The notes below the pieces were generated by a model that did no database searches, was not told where the DNA came from, and saw only the letters and a list, made by a program, of their open reading frames with translations. 22,887 nt of DNA from an uncultured virus (IMG/VR IMGVR_UViG_3300032893_000022) (taxonomy: Duplodnaviria > Heunggongvirae > Uroviricota > Caudoviricetes), in the IMG/VR virus record IMGVR_UViG_3300032893_000022; one strand, given 5' to 3'. The translations under genes were made by a program, and so were the position numbers. Positions 2,711-16,923 of the stretch are shown one piece after another. The first letter of the stretch is position 1. Each line of letters begins with the position of its first letter.

Positions 2711-3521
2711 CCTTTACTCCTTCTGGAAGAGGAGTGGCGTCGCTATAGAGTCTTATTTCTATAAAATCGAAATCACCACTAACAACTGAACAATAAGTTT
2801 CACCCATTCCAGGGCGTTTAATTGTTCCAATTGTATTTCCAAAATATTTCTTTTTGGGATCTAATTGCTTAGTTTCCCAAAGATTTTTCCACATATTATC
2901 AATAATAAGATCTTTAAGTAATTCATATGCTTTATCAGGATATTTTAATAATTCTTTTACATCCAAAGGTCTTAGAGCAACTCTATCTACGTAAGTATCT
3001 TTATATAAATTATCATAATTTAAAGAAGCAATTCCAGGTTTATTAAGATTAAAAGCTTCTTGATTATTACTTTTAATTCTTGTAACTCCTGGTTTATATT
3101 CAAATTTTTCAGGAATACTCACTTTATTTGTCATTGCGCCATCATTGTCTAATTTATAACCTTTTGTAATAAGTTGTAAAGCTCTCTCAATATCCTTTAA
3201 AATAGCGTTTAAAGGCTCTATTAGGCTCTCTGCTGGGATTTCTCCGTTAGGAGCTTCAAAGGGATTAACCTTTACAGGAACAACTTTCCCGGGCTTTATA
3301 ACGATTGGGGGTTGACCATTGGATTTAATAAGAACTGGTTCTGGAAGATCTTCCTCTTCTTCAACAACTTTCTTTTTCCTGGGTTTACGAGCTTTTACAC
3401 GTTCTTTATATTCAGCTAAAGCTTTTAAACGAGCTGCTTCTTCAGCCGCAGCTTCTTCAGGTGTTTTAGCTTTATCTAGGGACTCCCCCGTCTCGGGGTT
3501 ATATTTCATAACAGGAGCCAT
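2667..3521 (-). CDS. Hypothetical protein with low-complexity Glu/Lys/Pro-rich N-terminus
   Basis: 284-aa ORF with GGAG RBS and its own predicted promoter. No family recognised. Confidence 0.75.
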   Translation of the reverse strand: MAPVMKYNPETGESLDKAKTPEEAAAEEAARLKALAEYKERVKARKPRKKKVVEEEEDLPEPVLIKSNGQPPIVIKPGKVVPVKVNPFEAPNGEIPAESLIEPLNAILKDIERALQLITKGYKLDNDGAMTNKVSIPEKFEYKPGVTRIKSNNQEAFNLNKPGIASLNYDNLYKDTYVDRVALRPLDVKELLKYPDKAYELLKDLIIDNMWKNLWETKQLDPKKKYFGNTIGTIKRPGMGETYCSVVSGDFDFIEIRLYSDATPLPEGVKDERVGKSVNNGARS

Positions 3522-3524
3522 TAT

Positions 3525-3950
3525 TTATTCTCCAATTGAAGATTTAACATTAACACTTATAGTAACAGGTTCTTCTTGTTTTGTCAACTCTTTATCTTGT
3601 TCTTGTTCAATTTCTTTTTGTAAAAGAGCTAACATTCTCCAGGCAGCTTTTGCAGTATGACGTTTACCATCTGTGTCTATAGTGCCTCTTTGAAGGAAAT
3701 GACGCATACAAGTATCTGCTTCATCGCCAGATTTACTTCTAGTCCAACGTAATGGAAGTCCTGGATTATGTTGATCATTTCCAGCTTTAGATATTTCAGA
3801 TATAGCCACTATAGCATCAGGAAAGTAATCTAATACTCCACTAGCTATTGGAAAATTCTTTCGGGATTGGGCATCGTTTGGAAGAGATGTAGCTCTAGTT
3901 GGAGCGCCACCTTCTCCACGCATTCGGTTTTTTTCTCTTTCGTCACTCAT
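3525..3950 (-). CDS. dATP/dGTP diphosphohydrolase-domain protein (DUF5664-like)
   Basis: RKNFPIASGVLDYFPDAIVAISEISKAGNDQH...W...MRHF...DTDGKRHTAKAAWRMLALLQ fits this phage family. Confidence 0.75.
   Translation of the reverse strand: MSDEREKNRMRGEGGAPTRATSLPNDAQSRKNFPIASGVLDYFPDAIVAISEISKAGNDQHNPGLPLRWTRSKSGDEADTCMRHFLQRGTIDTDGKRHTAKAAWRMLALLQKEIEQEQDKELTKQEEPVTISVNVKSSIGE
3559..3587 (-). promoter_or_regulatory. Sigma70-type promoter with extended -10, embedded in the 3' end of the upstream gene
   Basis: TTGACA (3587-3582), 17-nt spacer AAACAAGAAGAACCTGT, TACTAT (3564-3559). TGn precedes the -10. Confidence 0.65.
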
Positions 3951-4321: not shown

Positions 4322-5116
4322 TTAAACCTTCTTTCTAAGATTTTCTTTTTGTTTTTTAGATAATAAATTATTCTTAGCACCTTTTTTTCTAGACCAAGTA
4401 CCACAGTCTTGACATTGATAACGTTGGAATTTACCATCAGAAGTTATAGAAAATCCTCGCTTTTGAAGTCTTTTACTTCCACAATTACATACAACATCTT
4501 TAAGATCACTATAAAGATCAAAGTTAATTTTATTATCCCAAGGAGCAAGTTTTTTATAAACTTCTTCTGTAGCTAACACGTCTATTTTGTTATATTTCTC
4601 CATTTCTTCCCATGCTTCAGGATTCTTGGCTTCACATTGACGCCATAATTCTCTTCCGGGGAACTTTTTATGATCTGATTTTTGATATTTTATATGTAAG
4701 TATTTACATAAATCTTTTAAACTATTGGATGTAAAACCAAATTTATTCTTCGCTACAACTTTTGTGTCAAAATGTTTAAAAGGACTTGTAGCTTTTAAAT
4801 CATAGAACGCAAATCGAGCATTTAAACGTTTAATATCAAATGATTTACCATTTTGCGTAACAATAATATCAGCTTCATTAAGAAGCTTATGAATTCCTCT
4901 AATAATCTTCTCATCGTCTCTAGGATCTTTTCTATCTCTATTATCCATATACATCATTTTTTCTGGAGAATCTCCGAGCCATTTAGCGGCCCAGCTAGCT
5001 ACGCACCAATCTTTAATAATTTGATCAGGAAGAATTTTTTGATCCCAAATTCCCCAAGTTTCAACAACATATCCAAAGGTTTCTATATCTAAGACGAGGA
5101 CTTTAGCTTTACTCAT
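4322..5116 (-). CDS. RNase H-fold (DEDD/RNase_H_2-like) 3'-5' exonuclease with C-terminal zinc ribbon
   Basis: VLVLDIET, TQNGKSFDI, KYNKIDV exonuclease motifs. C-terminal CNCGS...RYQCQDCG. Confidence 0.85.
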   Translation of the reverse strand: MSKAKVLVLDIETFGYVVETWGIWDQKILPDQIIKDWCVASWAAKWLGDSPEKMMYMDNRDRKDPRDDEKIIRGIHKLLNEADIIVTQNGKSFDIKRLNARFAFYDLKATSPFKHFDTKVVAKNKFGFTSNSLKDLCKYLHIKYQKSDHKKFPGRELWRQCEAKNPEAWEEMEKYNKIDVLATEEVYKKLAPWDNKINFDLYSDLKDVVCNCGSKRLQKRGFSITSDGKFQRYQCQDCGTWSRKKGAKNNLLSKKQKENLRKKV

Positions 5117-12048: not shown

Positions 12049-12349
12049 GTTTCTTTAAATCCTTTTCGGAAAAATATGTGTCTAAACTCATATCTTTATA
12101 AAATAATTCTACTCTTACAAAATTTCTTTTATCTTTAAAATCATCATCTTGAGCACCATATCCAACAACTAAACCTTTAAGTTTCACTCTACGAGCTTTA
12201 GATAAAAGCCACATTGCAATTTCTTCGTAATATTCTTTCCTAAATTCCCTAGTACTAGGTGTTTCAAAAACTTCTACAATATGTTCAGTATGCCAACTAT
12301 GACATTTAGCGGTTAATTGAACTTTGTCTCCGGGTTTTAATTTATTCAT
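12041..12349 (-). CDS. Hypothetical protein (possible SH3/KOW-like barrel)
   Basis: LKPGDKVQL...KGLVVGY...VRVELF...FSEKDL pattern. Confidence 0.55.
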   Translation of the reverse strand: MNKLKPGDKVQLTAKCHSWHTEHIVEVFETPSTREFRKEYYEEIAMWLLSKARRVKLKGLVVGYGAQDDDFKDKRNFVRVELFYKDMSLDTYFSEKDLKKLA

Positions 12350-13017
12350 CTTAAATTCTCCAATAATTCCTTATTTTTTTTAAGTGTATAATTTGGAAAC
12401 ATTTTTATATCTATAACCTTAGCAAATATTTTAACAGTATCGTGAAGTTTTTTCAAGAGTTTTGTTTGAGAATAATTACCATCAAAATTTTCTACAAGAG
12501 ATAAACTATCGTCTTCTTTAAAATAAACCCATATCCTATTACCTTCAACATATTCTGTATTATCTATTGCATCTCTAATCTTGGATTCATTGGTTCTTGG
12601 GGAATTCATAGTTTTGTCAGTAATTGTCTTTCTTGCAGCAAATCGTTTAATATCTTTTATATCCAAAATCTCTTTGGCATACTTATTGTATAAATCTAGA
12701 TAATTATCATTATCATTAAGCATTAAATTTAACATTTCTTTAATAAATTCACGCAAAGCTAATTCTTTTCCTGGGGCTTTTATGGCAGATCCTTTATATT
12801 TGATTTCACCTTTTTCATCTAAGAGAACATAATTTTTAGCTTTTAAAATTATAACCTTTTTGTAATAACCGTCATCACTCCAAGTCATAAACTCTGGAGA
12901 TTTATCGTTAATATCCTTAATAAAAGCTTTTCGTTCTTCTAAGGGAATAAAAGAACCATCTGGTTTACAAAATGAGATCGAATCTGTGTCTACATTGGCT
13001 ATTTGAAAGTTATTCAC
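12346..13017 (-). CDS. Family B DNA polymerase, C-terminal part (motif C, palm/thumb)
   Basis: IANVDTDSISF (motif C), KAKNYVL...KYKGS. Likely start GTG 13017 overlaps the mini-gene TGA (GTGA); the ORF track starts at TTG 13035. Confidence 0.88.
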   Translation of the reverse strand: MNNFQIANVDTDSISFCKPDGSFIPLEERKAFIKDINDKSPEFMTWSDDGYYKKVIILKAKNYVLLDEKGEIKYKGSAIKAPGKELALREFIKEMLNLMLNDNDNYLDLYNKYAKEILDIKDIKRFAARKTITDKTMNSPRTNESKIRDAIDNTEYVEGNRIWVYFKEDDSLSLVENFDGNYSQTKLLKKLHDTVKIFAKVIDIKMFPNYTLKKNKELLENLR

Positions 13018-13115
13018 TTCTTTTTTCTCATACAAGCTTTAGAACAAATATCAGGATATTCCATAGATGATTTGAAATATTCCCTACCACAAACTTTACA
13101 CTTCACTAGACTCAT
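13014..13115 (-). CDS. 33-aa four-Cys (zinc-finger-like) mini-protein between the two PolB halves
   Basis: Not in ORF track. AAGGAG (13128-13123) lies 7 nt before ATG 13115. MSLVKCKVCGREYFKSSMEYPDICSKACMRKKK* (CxxC...CxxxC). Confidence 0.75.
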   Translation of the reverse strand: MSLVKCKVCGREYFKSSMEYPDICSKACMRKKK

Positions 13116-14643
13116 CTTTGTTCTCCTTCATATATTGCTTATAAAATTCCATATCTTTTCCAGAAGCCCATTTCAAACTAAATTCTATTATATCTCGCGT
13201 CTCTTTGGTAATCTTTTTTGCCATCCACAAACAATTAAAATTAAGACCAGCAGTATTACAAAGACCATATGCACTATTGATAACAATTTTATTGGCTTGT
13301 TCACGATCGTAATAATAGCGGTCTTTAGTTTCTTTATATTTATCCTTAAGCTCAAATCGTTCATAAGTAAAATGATGAACCATTTTATAGAAATTACCAT
13401 TGGGATCTTTTTCTTTATCATAAAGTTTAAAACGTAATATTTGCGAAGGATATGCAGATTTAAGATCTATCTTTATGACATTACTATATATTCCAGGAAT
13501 ACCAAAACTAATGCCCCCTTTCACATATTCAACCTCACTAGCTTTAGGAACACTATGCGCTTCTTGGATATAACTTCTCAATAAAAAAGAATTGAGTTGT
13601 GAGCCACTTGCACTACAAATCATTTCCTGAAAACTCTTTGGAACACTTTGGGAAAGATAAAACTTAGCTGGACACATTAAATCAAACAACGCAAGAGCAT
13701 CGTCGCTATCATCTACGCAATATTCTTTTATTTTGACCCATTCTTCAGGGATATGATATTTAAAGCGTATTTGATTTGCATCATAAAATGTTCGACCAGG
13801 TTTTTCAAGTTTTTCTTTATTAACAATATACTTTAATCCATAACTATCATATTTCTTTTCAACAATATCATAATCAATGGATAGAAAATAGGTATCTACA
13901 ATTTCTCGGCCATAAACTTTAGAACTTTTAAATTCAATGTCTTGAGTTTGATCTTTACGTTTATAACTTGAATATTTATTGAACTTTATGGGACTTTCAT
14001 CACGACCTAGATAAAGATTAGTTTTAAATTTCTTCGCGCGGCTATATAAATAAGGTAAATCAAAACAGAAAACATTGTGTCCAATAAGACAATCGGGATT
14101 CCAAAGTCTTACATACTCACACCAGTCATCAATCATCGCACCTTCATCTTCATAATCATCATAGGCGAATAGATGTTTATATATTTTTCCTTGGTGACGA
14201 AAGGTATTGGAAATTAAAAGGAGTTTAGCTTCGGGAATTTCAGGGTCTAAACTTGTGGTTTCTATATCAAAAGAAAGAACAGAAAGATCTTTGGGCTTTA
14301 AACCTTTATAATAAGTTAAACCTTTGTTGACCATGGAAGATTCTTTTCCATCATTAATACAAAAAACATCTTCACCATCTTGATTTAAAAAGAATTTAGC
14401 CTGTTTCATTTCAGGTAAAGTTCTATATTGCTTTCCCCATTTATAATAAAGATCACCTTTAAGTTTTACCCAAGATTTATCTATAGGATTCGCAGATAAA
14501 ATCCAGTATTTATTAGGAATGCTAGATTCTTTTAAAGATCCATCTGGAAAACGTTGCCAAATTTTTAAAGATTCAACTTCAGGCTCGATACTCGTGATAT
14601 AAGGCATAGGATCTTTACCATAGATGAGTCTTTCATTCATCAT
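13096..14643 (-). CDS. Family B DNA polymerase, N-terminal part (3'-5' exonuclease, motifs A and B)
   Basis: ExoI SFDIET, ExoII GHNVFCFDLPYL, ExoIII YCVDD, motif A KIDLKSAYPS, motif B KIVINSAYG. Lacks DTDS. Confidence 0.92.
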   Translation of the reverse strand: MMNERLIYGKDPMPYITSIEPEVESLKIWQRFPDGSLKESSIPNKYWILSANPIDKSWVKLKGDLYYKWGKQYRTLPEMKQAKFFLNQDGEDVFCINDGKESSMVNKGLTYYKGLKPKDLSVLSFDIETTSLDPEIPEAKLLLISNTFRHQGKIYKHLFAYDDYEDEGAMIDDWCEYVRLWNPDCLIGHNVFCFDLPYLYSRAKKFKTNLYLGRDESPIKFNKYSSYKRKDQTQDIEFKSSKVYGREIVDTYFLSIDYDIVEKKYDSYGLKYIVNKEKLEKPGRTFYDANQIRFKYHIPEEWVKIKEYCVDDSDDALALFDLMCPAKFYLSQSVPKSFQEMICSASGSQLNSFLLRSYIQEAHSVPKASEVEYVKGGISFGIPGIYSNVIKIDLKSAYPSQILRFKLYDKEKDPNGNFYKMVHHFTYERFELKDKYKETKDRYYYDREQANKIVINSAYGLCNTAGLNFNCLWMAKKITKETRDIIEFSLKWASGKDMEFYKQYMKENKDESSEV

Positions 14644-14645
14644 TA

Positions 14646-14966
14646 TTAATTACTCGTTCCATCTGTAGGGAGTTGACTAAGAATTTCATCAAATCCATCA
14701 CTGTCTTTAACGATATCCCCTCCAGCGATTAAATCTTTTCTTAAAAATCTTGTAATTCCATCTGGAGTATCTCCAAGATATATATAAGTATCATCAATAT
14801 CAAGAACAAAACCTCTAACGGCTAAAGGATTTTGTTGAATTAAACTACCTTCTTCACTATGATCTTCACTTTTAAAATACACCGATAAAATAAATTCAAC
14901 CTGTTGGCCCATAAAATTGGCCGCAAACACATTTTGGACAAAGTCTTGATCATCTTTTTTACTCAT
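14646..14966 (-). CDS. Hypothetical protein, possible Sm/Hfq-like beta-barrel
   Basis: Likely start ATG 14966 (MSKKDD), 1 nt after the helicase stop. GQQVEFIL...VRGFVLDIDDTYIYL...FLRKDLI. Confidence 0.55.
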   Translation of the reverse strand: MSKKDDQDFVQNVFAANFMGQQVEFILSVYFKSEDHSEEGSLIQQNPLAVRGFVLDIDDTYIYLGDTPDGITRFLRKDLIAGGDIVKDSDGFDEILSQLPTDGTSN

Positions 14967-14967
14967 A

Positions 14968-16923
14968 TTACTCCCAGGCTTTATTTGTTTCCAAAATTTC
15001 AGCAGTTTTATCATCTCTCTTTTTCTTTCTAAAAGCTCTTAGTTCTTCTACTTGTTCTTCTGTTAAAGAATTTATCTCTCCAGTTACTCCATTCCAGCTA
15101 AAATCTCCACTCCATAAACTTCCAAAACGATTTTTAACAATAGCAAAAGAAATATATCTATCATCCTCTGCATATTTAGGAGAATAACCTTCTCTCCAAA
15201 GTGTTAAAATCGTTGTACAACTTTGTTCAATAACACTCGATCCTTTAACTCCTTTTAAACTCATTAATGGATCAGATACTTCAGGAGTTGAATGTTTTTG
15301 AGTTTGGAGCAATAATAGTATACATACTTCTAGTTCATTTGCCAAGTCTTTTAAAGTATTAGCAATGAATCCAGTATTTGCAGTTTGATCTCCATAAGGT
15401 CCAGCAATACATTCTAGATAATCTACAATTACAAGCTTTACCTTCTTTCCAATAATTTCTTCTTGTTGTCTTATCATTTCTTTCATATCACTAGCAGTGA
15501 GACCAGCGCGGAAAGTAAAGTTAACATTTGTATAATCTTCCTTCATAATAGAGTTCGCAAGAAGTCTTGCTTCTTCAGGTTGTGTTTTGACAAAATTAAG
15601 AGCTTCTTTAAAATCAAATCCAGTCTTTTGTTGGATAATTTTAGCTGTTACTATAGGTTTTCCCATATCCAAAGAAAAGAAAGCTGAAGGAATTCCCATT
15701 TTAGAACTATACTTAAGATAATTCATTGCCATAGTAGTTTTACCCGCGCCAGGTTGACCAAGTAGCCCATTTAATGTAGAGGTTGCAAGTATTAGTTTTT
15801 CATCAAGTTTTACAATTCCGGTTTTAATAATATTCTTCTCAAAATCTTGTGAAAATTTCACCAAATCATCGAACATTTCGTCGAATTTAACAAAGGGTTT
15901 ATCTTCAATATTTCGATCTTTACAAGAATGTTCTCCTAATTGATTACAATAGTCTTGTAACCACCCAGCTTTTTTACAAGTATATTGACCTCCTTCCCAA
16001 CTATCCGTAAATACTGTATCTTCAATAATATTCTTATAAAGTTCAGATTTATCTGTTGTACCTTGTCCATAAAGATCAATAGAACGTCGTAATGCTCCTT
16101 TACATAAGTCATATGTCATTTCTTTAGTAAATCCTAGACCTCTACACGTTGAAGCTAATACCATCAATGCTGAATGTCTTTCTCCAGTTTTAAAATGACC
16201 TTGAGCTAAAGACCATTTACAATTCTTCCATTGAGAAGGCTTTTTAGATATATCTGTAACATCGTAATTCTTCTTAGGTTGAGTTTTTTCTTCTGGAACC
16301 ACTAACATATCCTCCGGTATTGTTATAGAGCCTTCTAGAGGCTGTAATTCTTTAGGTTCTAGGGCTAATTCTTTTATTTGTTCTATGGATGATTTATTAA
16401 GTATTGAATAAGATATAGGTATTTTGAATAAACCACTCTTTTGATGACGCGTATTAGGAATACGAAGAATTCTAGAAGCATTATAAAGCCCCTTATCCAA
16501 CGTTTTTAAATCTTTTCCTAAAATATTTAATGCTAAGTGCGCGACTTGATTAGGTGTTAAAAGTTTGGAAACTTGAAGTTTTACAGTAAATCCCTTTTGT
16601 CCCGAGAAATATAATTCAATGTTTTTAGGTTGGATATGAAATTGCTCACGAAGTCTTTGGACAAGAGTTAATGCATCTTTACGAGCTAGTTCTAAATCAT
16701 CCTTACTATCAAAATCAAATACCAATTGATCGGTCATTACATCTTTTATACCTGATACACTTTTCTTTGCTTGAAATTGTTTAGCATGATCATCATTGTA
16801 ATAAAAAATACTTGCATAGTGATCCACGTCTGGATTTTTTACAGGAAATTTCGCTGAAGAATTTATTAAAATACCTGGATCGTCTAAGGTTTTTGTGATT
16901 CTGACATATTGAGTCATTTGCAT
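14968..16923 (-). CDS. Primase-helicase fusion (AEP-type primase, PriCT-like helix, DnaB/SF4 helicase)
   Basis: LVFDFDS, YFSGQKG, D..LYNASRILRIPNT, GERHSAL. Walker A GQPGAGKTT, FFSLDM, VIVDYL, IEQ, VKNRFG. Confidence 0.88.
   Translation of the reverse strand: MQMTQYVRITKTLDDPGILINSSAKFPVKNPDVDHYASIFYYNDDHAKQFQAKKSVSGIKDVMTDQLVFDFDSKDDLELARKDALTLVQRLREQFHIQPKNIELYFSGQKGFTVKLQVSKLLTPNQVAHLALNILGKDLKTLDKGLYNASRILRIPNTRHQKSGLFKIPISYSILNKSSIEQIKELALEPKELQPLEGSITIPEDMLVVPEEKTQPKKNYDVTDISKKPSQWKNCKWSLAQGHFKTGERHSALMVLASTCRGLGFTKEMTYDLCKGALRRSIDLYGQGTTDKSELYKNIIEDTVFTDSWEGGQYTCKKAGWLQDYCNQLGEHSCKDRNIEDKPFVKFDEMFDDLVKFSQDFEKNIIKTGIVKLDEKLILATSTLNGLLGQPGAGKTTMAMNYLKYSSKMGIPSAFFSLDMGKPIVTAKIIQQKTGFDFKEALNFVKTQPEEARLLANSIMKEDYTNVNFTFRAGLTASDMKEMIRQQEEIIGKKVKLVIVDYLECIAGPYGDQTANTGFIANTLKDLANELEVCILLLLQTQKHSTPEVSDPLMSLKGVKGSSVIEQSCTTILTLWREGYSPKYAEDDRYISFAIVKNRFGSLWSGDFSWNGVTGEINSLTEEQVEELRAFRKKKRDDKTAEILETNKAWE

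Follow-up and report, generated by a model that had tools for sequence, protein, structure and literature searches.

A family B DNA polymerase divided ahead of motif C in an uncultured phage, at a junction that holds homing endonucleases or small ORFs in its relatives

Background

Family B DNA polymerases (PolBs) encoded by two genes are already known from the T4-like phages 44RR and 25, from PhiKZ and from archaea; the original prediction on the DNA analysed here had stated that split PolBs occur in some phages and archaea. In these T4-related Aeromonas phages gene 43 is divided into two adjacent cistrons, gp43A and gp43B (Petrov, Ratnayaka & Karam 2010), with a short spacer between them in some relatives and a free-standing GIY-YIG-type endonuclease in others. 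The gp43A and gp43B proteins of Aeromonas phage 25 have been reported to purify together and to show activity, and the NrdA enzyme split by mobE is likewise reported as active (PMC2988022). The latter case, nrdA/mobE of phage Aeh1 (Crona et al. 2011, PMC3045599), is described as an essential gene that a free-standing endonuclease has fractured in the absence of an intein or intron, with unique tails at the break on both products. In PolB of PhiKZ and the chimalliviruses the catalytic aspartates of motif A and motif C reside on separate chains and the break falls in an insertion of the palm domain (bioRxiv 2026, PMC13648687). The split PolBs of Methanobacteriales and Nanoarchaeum equitans are also two-gene enzymes, a state ascribed to a history with mobile elements in the form of inteins (PMC4104785, PMC2677866). 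In one published model the invading endonuclease supplies both a stop for the upstream fragment and a start for the downstream one (PMC2677866), and an AUGA coupling has been described as functional in a split Pfu polymerase (PMC3061061).

Here we consider the PolB of an uncultured phage (IMG/VR IMGVR_UViG_3300032893_000022), encoded within a stretch of 22,887 nucleotides, hereafter the window, by two adjacent ORFs that share a frame and both lie on the minus strand. It resembles each of the above systems in the features just listed, and departs from each in others. Gene 43 is split in the finger tip (PMC3061061), whereas the break in the window lies beyond the fingers and some 8 residues ahead of motif C; furthermore, the gene 43 spacer is described as untranslated intercistronic sequence, whereas that of the window is taken up by a 33-aa ORF that is translated and overlaps each of its neighbours. 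The phage also belongs to a lineage other than that of 44RR and 25, with the N-terminal half of its polymerase matching only 17 of 50,697 phage records, at 26-28% identity, and the C-terminal half matching none of them in a tblastn search. Aeh1 nrdA encodes a different enzyme, and its tails are reported as proven essential for activity (PMC3045599), whereas the tail on the N-terminal half in the window (FYKQYMKE-) appears conserved by sequence and additionally encodes the Shine-Dalgarno motif of the next cistron. PhiKZ carries the fingers on its C-terminal chain rather than the N-terminal one, its halves gp82 and gp50 have non-adjacent gene numbers, and it possesses a clamp-derived subunit with no counterpart seen in the window (PMC13648687). 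The archaeal enzymes are cellular rather than viral, and in N. equitans the genes are non-adjacent and their products are joined through trans-splicing by a split intein (PMC4104785, PMC2677866). The known phage PolB splits of 44RR/25 and PhiKZ, as described in these sources, thus lie at positions other than that of the window.

The two polymerase halves

The polymerase ORFs, hereafter the N-half and the C-half, are:

13096-14643, minus strand: N-half of PolB, 515 aa, with Exo I-III and motifs A and B
12346-13017, minus strand: C-half of PolB, 223 aa from a GTG at 13017, with an alternative TTG start at 13035

Read in translation, the N-half runs through the N-terminal and 3'-5' exonuclease domains, palm motif A, fingers motif B, a palm helix and a tail, and displays the motifs FDIET, NVFCFD, YCVDDSDD, DLKSAYPS and KIVINSAYG. 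It matches the Pfam families DNA_pol_B_exo1 (8.1e-15) and DNA_pol_B (6.8e-07), and its profile aligns with the KOD PolB chain 1wns_A over residues 52-531. The C-half comprises the palm hairpin with motif C (DTDS, in NVDTDSISF), the KYKG region and the thumb; by itself it had no match in Pfam or PHROG, and its profile aligned with archaeal PolB chains, beginning at their residue 532/533. Against the KOD, Tgo and Pfu PolB chains the N-half profile reached 1.7e-29 and the C-half profile 6.8e-09. All the features of family B membership, namely Exo I-III and motifs A, B and C, are present across the two halves, and the break falls about 8 residues ahead of the motif C strand, at residue ~531|532 of KOD PolB. 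The halves share a frame (14643-13035 = 1608 = 3x536). The same coordinates, frame and motifs were found again as in the original prediction, including the placement of motif C on an ORF of its own and hence of the motif A and motif C aspartates on different chains. By analogy with the split enzymes described above, the two halves would presumably assemble as a heterodimer. The N-half ends in a clade-specific tail of about 20 aa (KDMEFYKQYMKENKDESSEV), which is kept in the two closest relatives of the window, the loci L001 (60% identity) and L002 (58%).

Recurrence of the break in related phages

Among 34 related loci with a visible junction, 12 are split at the same site and 22 are contiguous; the contiguous relatives align across the break, with the halves of the window adjacent, in the same orientation and colinear with them. 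Given this recurrence, the two-gene PolB is real, neither an error nor a product of stop recoding, and the identical break point in 11 further loci bears out the earlier claim that a single sequencing error is not responsible. In the relatives the C-half starts at the same aligned position, 3-5 residues ahead of a conserved F, and we take the GTG at 13017 as the start in the window because the start codons of the relatives align there. A wider profile search with the C-half recovered 554 representatives at E<=1e-3, and the best 150 of these include 62 stand-alone C-halves (defined as starting with M and having D[TS]D[SG] within 30 residues), some of which could be gene-caller products on fragmentary contigs, alongside 35 contiguous polymerases. 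From the metagenome scan, L016 reaches the junction and is contiguous and L017 stops short of it, while L059 and L060, two weak partial matches, were left aside. In a quick tree the main split clade excludes L041 and L042, both of them split, and takes in the contiguous locus L045; L045 and another contiguous locus, L056, bear a loop of 36-45 aa at the break site.

Junction occupants and recombination

The 12 split loci differ in what lies between the halves: a GIY-YIG homing endonuclease in four, an HNH endonuclease in one, nothing in two and unrelated small ORFs in five. The GIY-YIG endonucleases of L047, L051 and L055 are accompanied by NUMOD3 (Pfam 6.6e-9, 2.3e-7 and 4.1e-10; phrog_314 ~1e-30), and the fourth, in L061, is a putative one, counted as GIY-YIG for its likeness to the L055 ORF. 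The HNH ORF is that of L041 (phrog_374 4.3e-17), and in L037 and L042 the halves overlap directly with no ORF between them. Small occupants that belong to no family are found in the window, L038, L039 and L052/L058, with sizes of 33, 46, 68 and 113 aa; L001 and L002 have unrelated ORFs of 113 aa and 46 aa respectively. The 33-aa ORF of the window is missing from all of the other 11 split loci.

An endonuclease thus separates the halves in five of the 12 split loci, and in the window itself there is none, so that the window is best filed as the endonuclease-free state of an endonuclease-fractured locus. The original prediction had held its arrangement to be unusual; it is instead one of the states of a polymorphic site where homing endonucleases land, and is known in kind from T4-like gene 43 and Aeh1 nrdA, as these are described in the literature cited above.

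Comparison of L001 with the locus L007 reveals the kind of recombination patch that is a feature of endonuclease-fractured genes, in these relatives and not in the window itself. The two are 100% identical until about 1.2 kb ahead of the junction, where identity drops to 77-94% and then to 69-73%; they are unalignable across the junction, and identity returns to 100% about 200 nt past it. The difference amounts to a patch of about 2 kb centred on the junction in phages that are otherwise ~100% identical. Between these loci dN/dS comes to 0.20 (N-half part) and 0.31 (C-half part), and 31 of the 38 strain differences listed for the N-half of the window are at third codon positions. These substitution patterns indicate purifying selection on both halves.

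The gap and the 33-aa ORF

The region between the halves contains the following:

13018-13098, minus strand: gap of 81 nt, from the last N-half sense codon to the C-half GTG
13014-13115, minus strand: mini ORF of 33 aa with CxxC..CxxxC, in a frame other than that of the halves
13123-13128, minus strand: AAGGAG Shine-Dalgarno of the mini ORF, 7 nt ahead of its ATG

The gap holds four in-frame stops (TAA, TAG, TGA, TAA), and recoding of a stop codon is ruled out because all three stop codons occur there in frame. The mini ORF (MSLVKCKVCGREYF...ICSKACMRKKK) begins within the N-half, with an ATG that lies 20 nt inside it, and ends in a TGA overlapping the GTG of the C-half as GTGA. Both the stops and this AAGGAG-led ORF with its overlap onto the C-half GTG were found as originally described. 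The AAGGAG is formed by K-E codons of the N-half tail, which is a dual use of the sequence, and GAGGA or AAGGAG occurs at the equivalent place in L001, L002 and L037. The hexamer GAAGTG is present at both edges of the gap; a duplication of the two GAAGTG contexts was considered, and at 17/30 positions identical by eye it is too weak to claim. The only direct repeats around the junction are two 8-nt AT-rich pairs, and an Rfam scan of 12300-14700 gave no match at E<=1. Together with the folding result given below, this lends no support to a group I intron, a riboswitch or a bypass hairpin.

Sequence searches with the mini ORF returned hits below significance. Its score against Pfam zf-C2HC_2 (E 0.0018, 18.3 bits) lies under the family cut-off of 27 bits, its PHROG matches to HNH families are weak (phrog_1271, E 0.03; phrog_15471, E 0.063), and in the protein atlas every match was <0.9, among them one cluster at 0.86, 14% of which is labelled YacG. 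BLASTP gave no alignment between it and the HNH ORF of L041. A degenerate DNA pattern for CKVCGREY retrieved 17 IMG/VR ORFs, about 9 of which have a second knuckle of the form C[ST]xxC as judged by eye; each of the 17 is either a free small ORF resembling a zinc ribbon or a piece of some unrelated protein, with none in a PolB.

The original prediction had pointed to read coverage across the junction. In a second study, 13017-13155 is covered by a 151-nt contig that differs through 5 substitutions and lacks indels, representing a strain of ~96% identity in which the changes listed for the mini ORF are one synonymous and one R>K (by eye); the filtered Logan contigs of the probable source run, which represent 58% of that run, leave 12885-14039 without coverage, a hole that allows no inference either way.

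Translation of the C-half

Neither the GTG nor the TTG start of the C-half has a GGAG-like motif in the 25 nt ahead of it, in agreement with the earlier statement that the GTG has no clear ribosome-binding site. The same is true of 18 of the 36 starts listed in the window, the N-half included (a count that takes both C-half starts). In the 10 split loci that were dissected, the cistron ahead of the C-half always stops 1-17 nt past the C-half start codon, and all 8 intervening ORFs in them start inside the N-half. Judged from coordinates by eye, about 20 of the 36 gene junctions in the window overlap, so overlap alone is the normal style of this genome. The coupled translation of the C-half that the original prediction ascribed to the mini ORF is plausible and the layout agrees with it, but does not single it out, since overlaps are the default here and half of the starts (18/36) are without such a motif.

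Proposed history and alternatives

We consider it probable that the window encodes a working two-polypeptide PolB, in which the break is a homing-endonuclease harbour and the mini ORF a variable occupant that relays ribosomes. The break in the PolB gene would lie ahead of motif C, in a surface extension of the palm that is particular to the clade, and would be an old one shared widely among these uncultured phages. As an intergenic point inside an essential and conserved gene it would act as a safe harbour, which free-standing GIY-YIG and HNH genes would enter and leave, carrying flanking polymerase sequence along with them; the split itself probably originated with such an endonuclease. The 33-aa zinc-finger ORF would be one among several unrelated small occupants. 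The three cistrons are chained, with the N-half tail providing the ribosome-binding site of the mini ORF and the end of the mini ORF leading into the C-half GTG. Given this chaining and the lack of a Shine-Dalgarno belonging to the C-half, ribosomes that finish the mini ORF would most likely reinitiate on the C-half, a termination-reinitiation coupling in which the mini protein itself would presumably have no dedicated polymerase role.

Other readings assign the mini ORF a different origin or function. It might be the collapsed relic of a homing endonuclease, for instance of an HNH enzyme that lost its catalytic core and retained the two zinc knuckles, and would have been kept because translating it supplies the C-half with ribosomes. 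The two HNH PHROGs, counted as the only family hints, point this way, as do the intact HNH or GIY-YIG genes at the same site in five of the split loci and the truncated endonuclease genes described in T4-like phages (PMC2993671). However, the HNH E-values are not significant, there is no BLASTP alignment to the L041 HNH ORF, the termini of the mini ORF are unlike those of the relatives' endonucleases, and the CKVCGREY-sharing ORFs (n=17) are all free small or unrelated ones; we regard this origin as unlikely. The mini protein was originally suggested to be a third subunit, and it could more generally be a true accessory, such as an assembly clamp or a DNA/RNA-binding helper. Four cysteines in knuckle spacing, a basic tail, the strongest Shine-Dalgarno of the neighbourhood, a layout that builds in stoichiometric co-translation with both halves, and its maintenance without indels in the ~96%-identical strain from another study are all consistent with such a role. 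Nevertheless, the ORF lacks any significant family match in Pfam, PHROG or the protein atlas, and its place in the 11 other split loci, the closest relatives L001 and L002 included, is taken by an endonuclease, another small ORF or, in two cases, nothing. A special role as third subunit is unsupported because of this absence, and an accessory function of any kind seems improbable to us.

Three further readings dispense with two independent working chains. Decay into a pseudogene, or an artefact of sequencing or assembly, could be imagined from the contiguous relatives (22/34 loci) and the coverage hole in the source-run contigs; against this, the break point is common to 11 other loci and many representative clusters, both halves are intact with all motifs present, the third-position bias and dN/dS values given above speak for selection, and the contig from the independent run crosses the mini ORF without indels, making decay or artefact very improbable. 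Equally remote is a single polymerase made through ribosomal bypass from the terminal GTG of the N-half to the GAAGTG 81 nt downstream. The halves share a frame, and with GAA GTG TAA as take-off and GAA GTG AAT as landing site the codons match and a stop directly follows take-off; moreover, the bypass element of T4 gene 60 travels with a homing endonuclease. Yet the gap of gene 60 is 50 nt, as against 81 nt here with an ORF and a strong Shine-Dalgarno inside it, and the fold of 13000-13130 on the minus strand (-19.4 kcal/mol, z 0.05, with 102/200 shuffles equally good) reveals no stable hairpin. The gaps of the relatives range from 0 to ~650 nt with other end codons, and the landing GTG coincides exactly with their ATG starts. 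Finally, the halves could be joined post-translationally by a split intein; metagenomes have yielded fractured genes whose halves flank an endonuclease (Dassa et al. 2009, PMC2677866). This is the least credible of all, for the N-half extends just ~20 residues beyond its PolB-aligned part and the C-half has only 3 ahead of its conserved F. Moreover, no intein or Hint family was found in Pfam at E<=1, and the C-half begins N-N-F, with no starting Cys, Ser or Thr nucleophile.

Implications

An essential replicase evidently tolerates a break beside its catalytic motif C, and this break is a stable and widespread state in uncultured phages, placed unlike those of the split PolBs studied so far. 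The series of loci, from contiguous, through contiguous with a loop and split but empty, to split with GIY-YIG or HNH genes and split with small ORFs, reads as a time course, laid out in nature, in which homing endonucleases break an essential gene, settle in it and depart again. Annotators will tend to call such polymerases truncated or pseudogenes.

A bolder interpretation, which we rate as unlikely, is that these loci represent a large undescribed clade of constitutively two-chain phage PolBs, in which the junction is a docking bay with an obligatory translational relay. The break before motif C would then be a third position beside the T4-like and PhiKZ splits, and any gene that lands there, whether an endonuclease, a lipoprotein-like ORF or a zinc finger, would be forced into a relay that the polymerase needs. 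The zinc-finger peptide of the window would on such a scheme be a co-opted stoichiometric accessory of the split enzyme, and the looped contiguous polymerases of L045 and L056 would be secondary re-fusions.

Organization of the split polymerase

Examination of the minus strand of the window reveals a family B DNA polymerase (PolB) encoded by two genes, an N-half and a C-half, with a mini ORF at the junction between them:

13096-14643, minus strand: PolB N-half, 515 aa, with Exo I-III and motifs A and B
12346-13017/13035, minus strand: PolB C-half, 223-229 aa, with motif C (NVDTDSISF)
13014-13115, minus strand: mini ORF, 33 aa, in a frame different from that of the PolB halves, with CxxC and CxxxC pairs and a basic tail

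The N-half displays Exo I (FDIET), Exo II (NVFCFD), Exo III (YCVDDSDD), motif A (DLKSAYPS) and motif B (KIVINSAYG), and matches the Pfam families DNA_pol_B_exo1 (8.1e-15) and DNA_pol_B (6.8e-07); the C-half has no match in Pfam or PHROGs. As originally predicted, the halves share one frame and are separated in it by four stops (TAA, TAG, TGA, TAA); joining the halves by one error, or by recoding one stop codon, is thus impossible. The G+C content of the window is 30.7%. Upstream of PolB lies a 651-aa ORF (14968-16923, minus strand) with, by eye, primase-like N-terminal and DnaB/helicase-like C-terminal features and a Walker A motif (GQPGAGKT); an alignable ORF sits directly upstream of the polymerase in the related locus L003.

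Breadth and authenticity of the split

Against 50,697 phage records the N-half matched only 17, those of Salinibacter and Nostoc/Anabaena/Dolichospermum phages, at 26-28% identity, and the C-half matched none; the Salinibacter phage PolB gene inspected is one contiguous ORF. The junction is readable in 34 loci including the window, drawn from IMG/VR scans, one metagenome scan and one genome-contig scan, with the partial loci L017, L059 and L060 left out of the count. Comparison of these homologues shows PolB to be contiguous in 22 and split exactly at the window's position in 12: the window, L001 (=L038), L002 (=L039), L007 (=L047), L037, L041, L042, L051, L052, L058 (matching L052 at the junction and identical to it in the N part), L055 and L061. 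One locus contiguous at the motif C site, L043, has a frame shift just before motif B, with overlapping frames (1529-2947 and 2839-3669) carrying the continuation; the cause is either faulty assembly or a frameshift in the gene itself.

When 1.84 billion representative proteins were searched with a profile built from four C-halves, 554 matched at E<=1e-3, of which 185 reached E<=1e-30. Among the best 150 of the 554, with the caveat that some short entries may be contig fragments, 62 are stand-alone C-halves (M start and D[TS]D[SG] within 30 residues), 6 have this motif within 30 residues without an M start, 35 are contiguous, 15 are intermediate and 32 fall outside the motif expression used for sorting. 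Only two matches were found in 185,579 species genomes: L061, split and with a GIY-YIG-like occupant, on a contig binned in a Flavobacteriaceae MAG, and L062, with a contiguous PolB of 791 aa, on one binned in an Akkermansiaceae MAG. Since the binning of phage contigs is unreliable, we make no host call from these MAGs.

An artefactual origin of the window's split is rejected, as 11 further loci are broken at the same position. At the level of independent sequence, a 151-nt contig from a second study crosses 13017-13155 with 5 substitutions and no indels; a wetland-metagenome run containing 99% of the sampled words is the probable source of the window, and the contigs compared from it do not reach the junction and carry no weight there. 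Third codon positions account for 31 of the 38 listed strain differences in the window's N-half. Between L001 and L007 both halves are under purifying selection, with dN/dS of 0.20 for the N-half part (~390 codons) and 0.31 for the C-half part (~177 codons, with only 13 differences). The division of PolB into two genes, as first proposed, is thus borne out by the recurrence of the break and by selection on both halves; the split PolB is real and widespread and, judging from its sequence, looks functional.

Position of the break

The N-half profile aligns with the Thermococcus KOD PolB (1wns_A) as far as residue 531, and the C-half profile begins at residue 532/533 of the same kind of chains. 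Given these bounds, the N-half comprises the N-terminal and exonuclease domains, the first part of the palm and the fingers, and the C-half the motif C hairpin and the thumb. Two contiguous polymerases, L045 (=L008) and L056, have an in-frame loop of 36-45 aa precisely at the split site, and the tail motif of N-halves (KDYW...) and the start motif of C-halves (HNF) are both retained in it. The split and looped forms have in common an extension following WA[ST]G (KD.(D)[YF][WY]...), which plain contiguous ones lack. The split of T4-like gene 43 lies in the finger tip (PMC3061061), and that of the PhiKZ PolB lies in a palm insertion leaving the fingers with the C-terminal chain (PMC13648687); relative to these, the break before motif C is a third position. 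A literature search, with supplements and Petrov et al. 2010 outside its scope, turned up no account of a phage PolB broken at this point.

Occupants and mobility of the junction

Occupants of the junction in the split loci

GIY-YIG/NUMOD3 homing endonuclease, by family matches: L047, L051, L055
GIY-YIG/NUMOD3-type, by likeness to L055 only: L061
HNH endonuclease: L041 (phrog_374 4.3e-17; Pfam HNH only 0.003)
No occupant, N-half stop 11 nt past the C-half ATG: L037, L042
Small ORFs without Pfam or PHROG family: window (33 aa), L038 (113 aa), L039 (46 aa), L052/L058 (68 aa)

The split PolB probably belongs to a known class, essential phage genes that free-standing homing endonucleases have broken in two, and the window is an endonuclease-free state of the junction with a small zinc-finger ORF as occupant. 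L001 and L007 are 100% identical for >1.2 kb on the left side and from ~200 nt past the junction on the right; between these flanks identity falls stepwise, to 77-94% and then 69-73%, and the sequences no longer align at the junction itself, where L001 has the 113-aa ORF and L007 carries a GIY-YIG gene. This patch would be the pattern expected of endonuclease-driven co-conversion or marker exclusion, in the light of homing biology (PMC2988022). The occupant shared by L052 (2799-3005) and L058 is Cys-rich, starts with a lipoprotein-like signal (MKNKILKVILTMVLFNLTSC...) and overlaps ~90 nt of the N-half tail in a different frame.

The mini ORF shows no resemblance to any small-ORF occupant of the other split loci. 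Its matches are all sub-threshold: zf-C2HC_2 at 18.3 bits against a cut-off of 27 bits, HNH PHROGs at E 0.03-0.06, and protein-atlas matches all <0.9. The string CKVCGREY is common to 17 IMG/VR ORFs, about 9 of which have, by reading, a C[ST]xxC second knuckle, and none of the 17 lies within a polymerase. The mini protein looks like a generic small zinc ribbon. The original prediction had cast it as a possible third subunit; it is missing from 11 of the 12 split loci, which makes a dedicated polymerase subunit quite unlikely. That it is a relic of a homing endonuclease is possible, if doubtful, and sequence alignment offers no support for it. A hint of a gene 60-like ribosomal hop is the presence of GAA GTG on each edge of the gap, one copy (13096-13101) closing the N-half right before TAA and the other (13015-13020) opening the C-half, both on the minus strand and 84 nt apart from start to start. 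However, folding gives no hairpin at the junction, the gap is 81 nt, and the junctions of relatives vary freely; the repeated GAAGTG may be a trace of junction duplication, or chance. No Rfam family matched at the junction region, and a split intein is excluded by the short tails of the halves and the lack of a Hint family.

Translation of the C-half

The mini ORF begins 20 nt within the N-half, with AAGGAG 7 nt ahead of its ATG, and its TGA overlaps the C-half GTG. The earlier claim that this GTG has no clear ribosome-binding site stands, in that no GGAG-like motif occurs in the 25 nt upstream, but it is hardly distinctive: 18 of the 36 listed starts, including that of the N-half, equally want one. 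Overlap affects about 20 of the window's 36 gene junctions, by reading of coordinates. In all ten dissected split loci the cistron before the C-half stops 1-17 nt past the C-half start codon, by GTGA in the window, by ATGA in L038 and L039, and inside the conserved [HY]-[ND]-F codons in the others; all eight intervening ORFs begin within the N-half. In the window, L037, L038 and L039 the Shine-Dalgarno sequence of the cistron that follows is built from the K-E codons of the N-half tail. In the window (13123-13131, minus strand) and at the equivalent places of L001, L002 and L037 the conserved tail (…YMKE…) is encoded by ATGAAGGAG-like DNA with this double role, and hence its conservation may partly be at the nucleotide level. 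This layout fits two published descriptions: Dassa et al. propose that the endonuclease gene, on invasion, brings an upstream stop and a downstream start (PMC2677866), and AUGA coupling functions in an engineered split Pfu polymerase (PMC3061061). We infer that translation of the C-half is probably coupled to that of the mini ORF. New here are the position of the break, the breadth of the split and a translated bridge replacing an untranslated spacer.

History of the split

In a quick tree with 11 split rows, the window, L038 and L039 form a group (support 99), and these nest in a six-row set of five split loci and L045, which is contiguous and looped (support 98). A larger group (support 88) takes in nine of the 11 split rows together with L045; L041 and L042 fall in the poorly supported base, and the place of L047 is unsafe because it is mosaic. 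The gene could have split once, long ago, and re-fused at least once, or it could have split several times. L045 sits inside the split clade beside the occupant-free L037, and this position hints that a split gene may have re-fused.

In L003 (4004-6772) a contiguous PolB and a uracil-DNA glycosylase domain make up one in-frame fusion of 922 aa (Pfam UDG 5.8e-16, residues 749-910), and L001 and L007 have a separate ORF of 197-199 aa, two ORFs downstream of the C-half, alignable to this part of L003. Directly following this glycosylase-like gene, L007 has an extra 154-aa ORF (4607-5071) whose HNH signatures are weak (Pfam HNH E 0.0057, below cut-off), missing from the near-identical L001 (7313-7316), which looks like a second mobile-endonuclease polymorphism in the same replication module.
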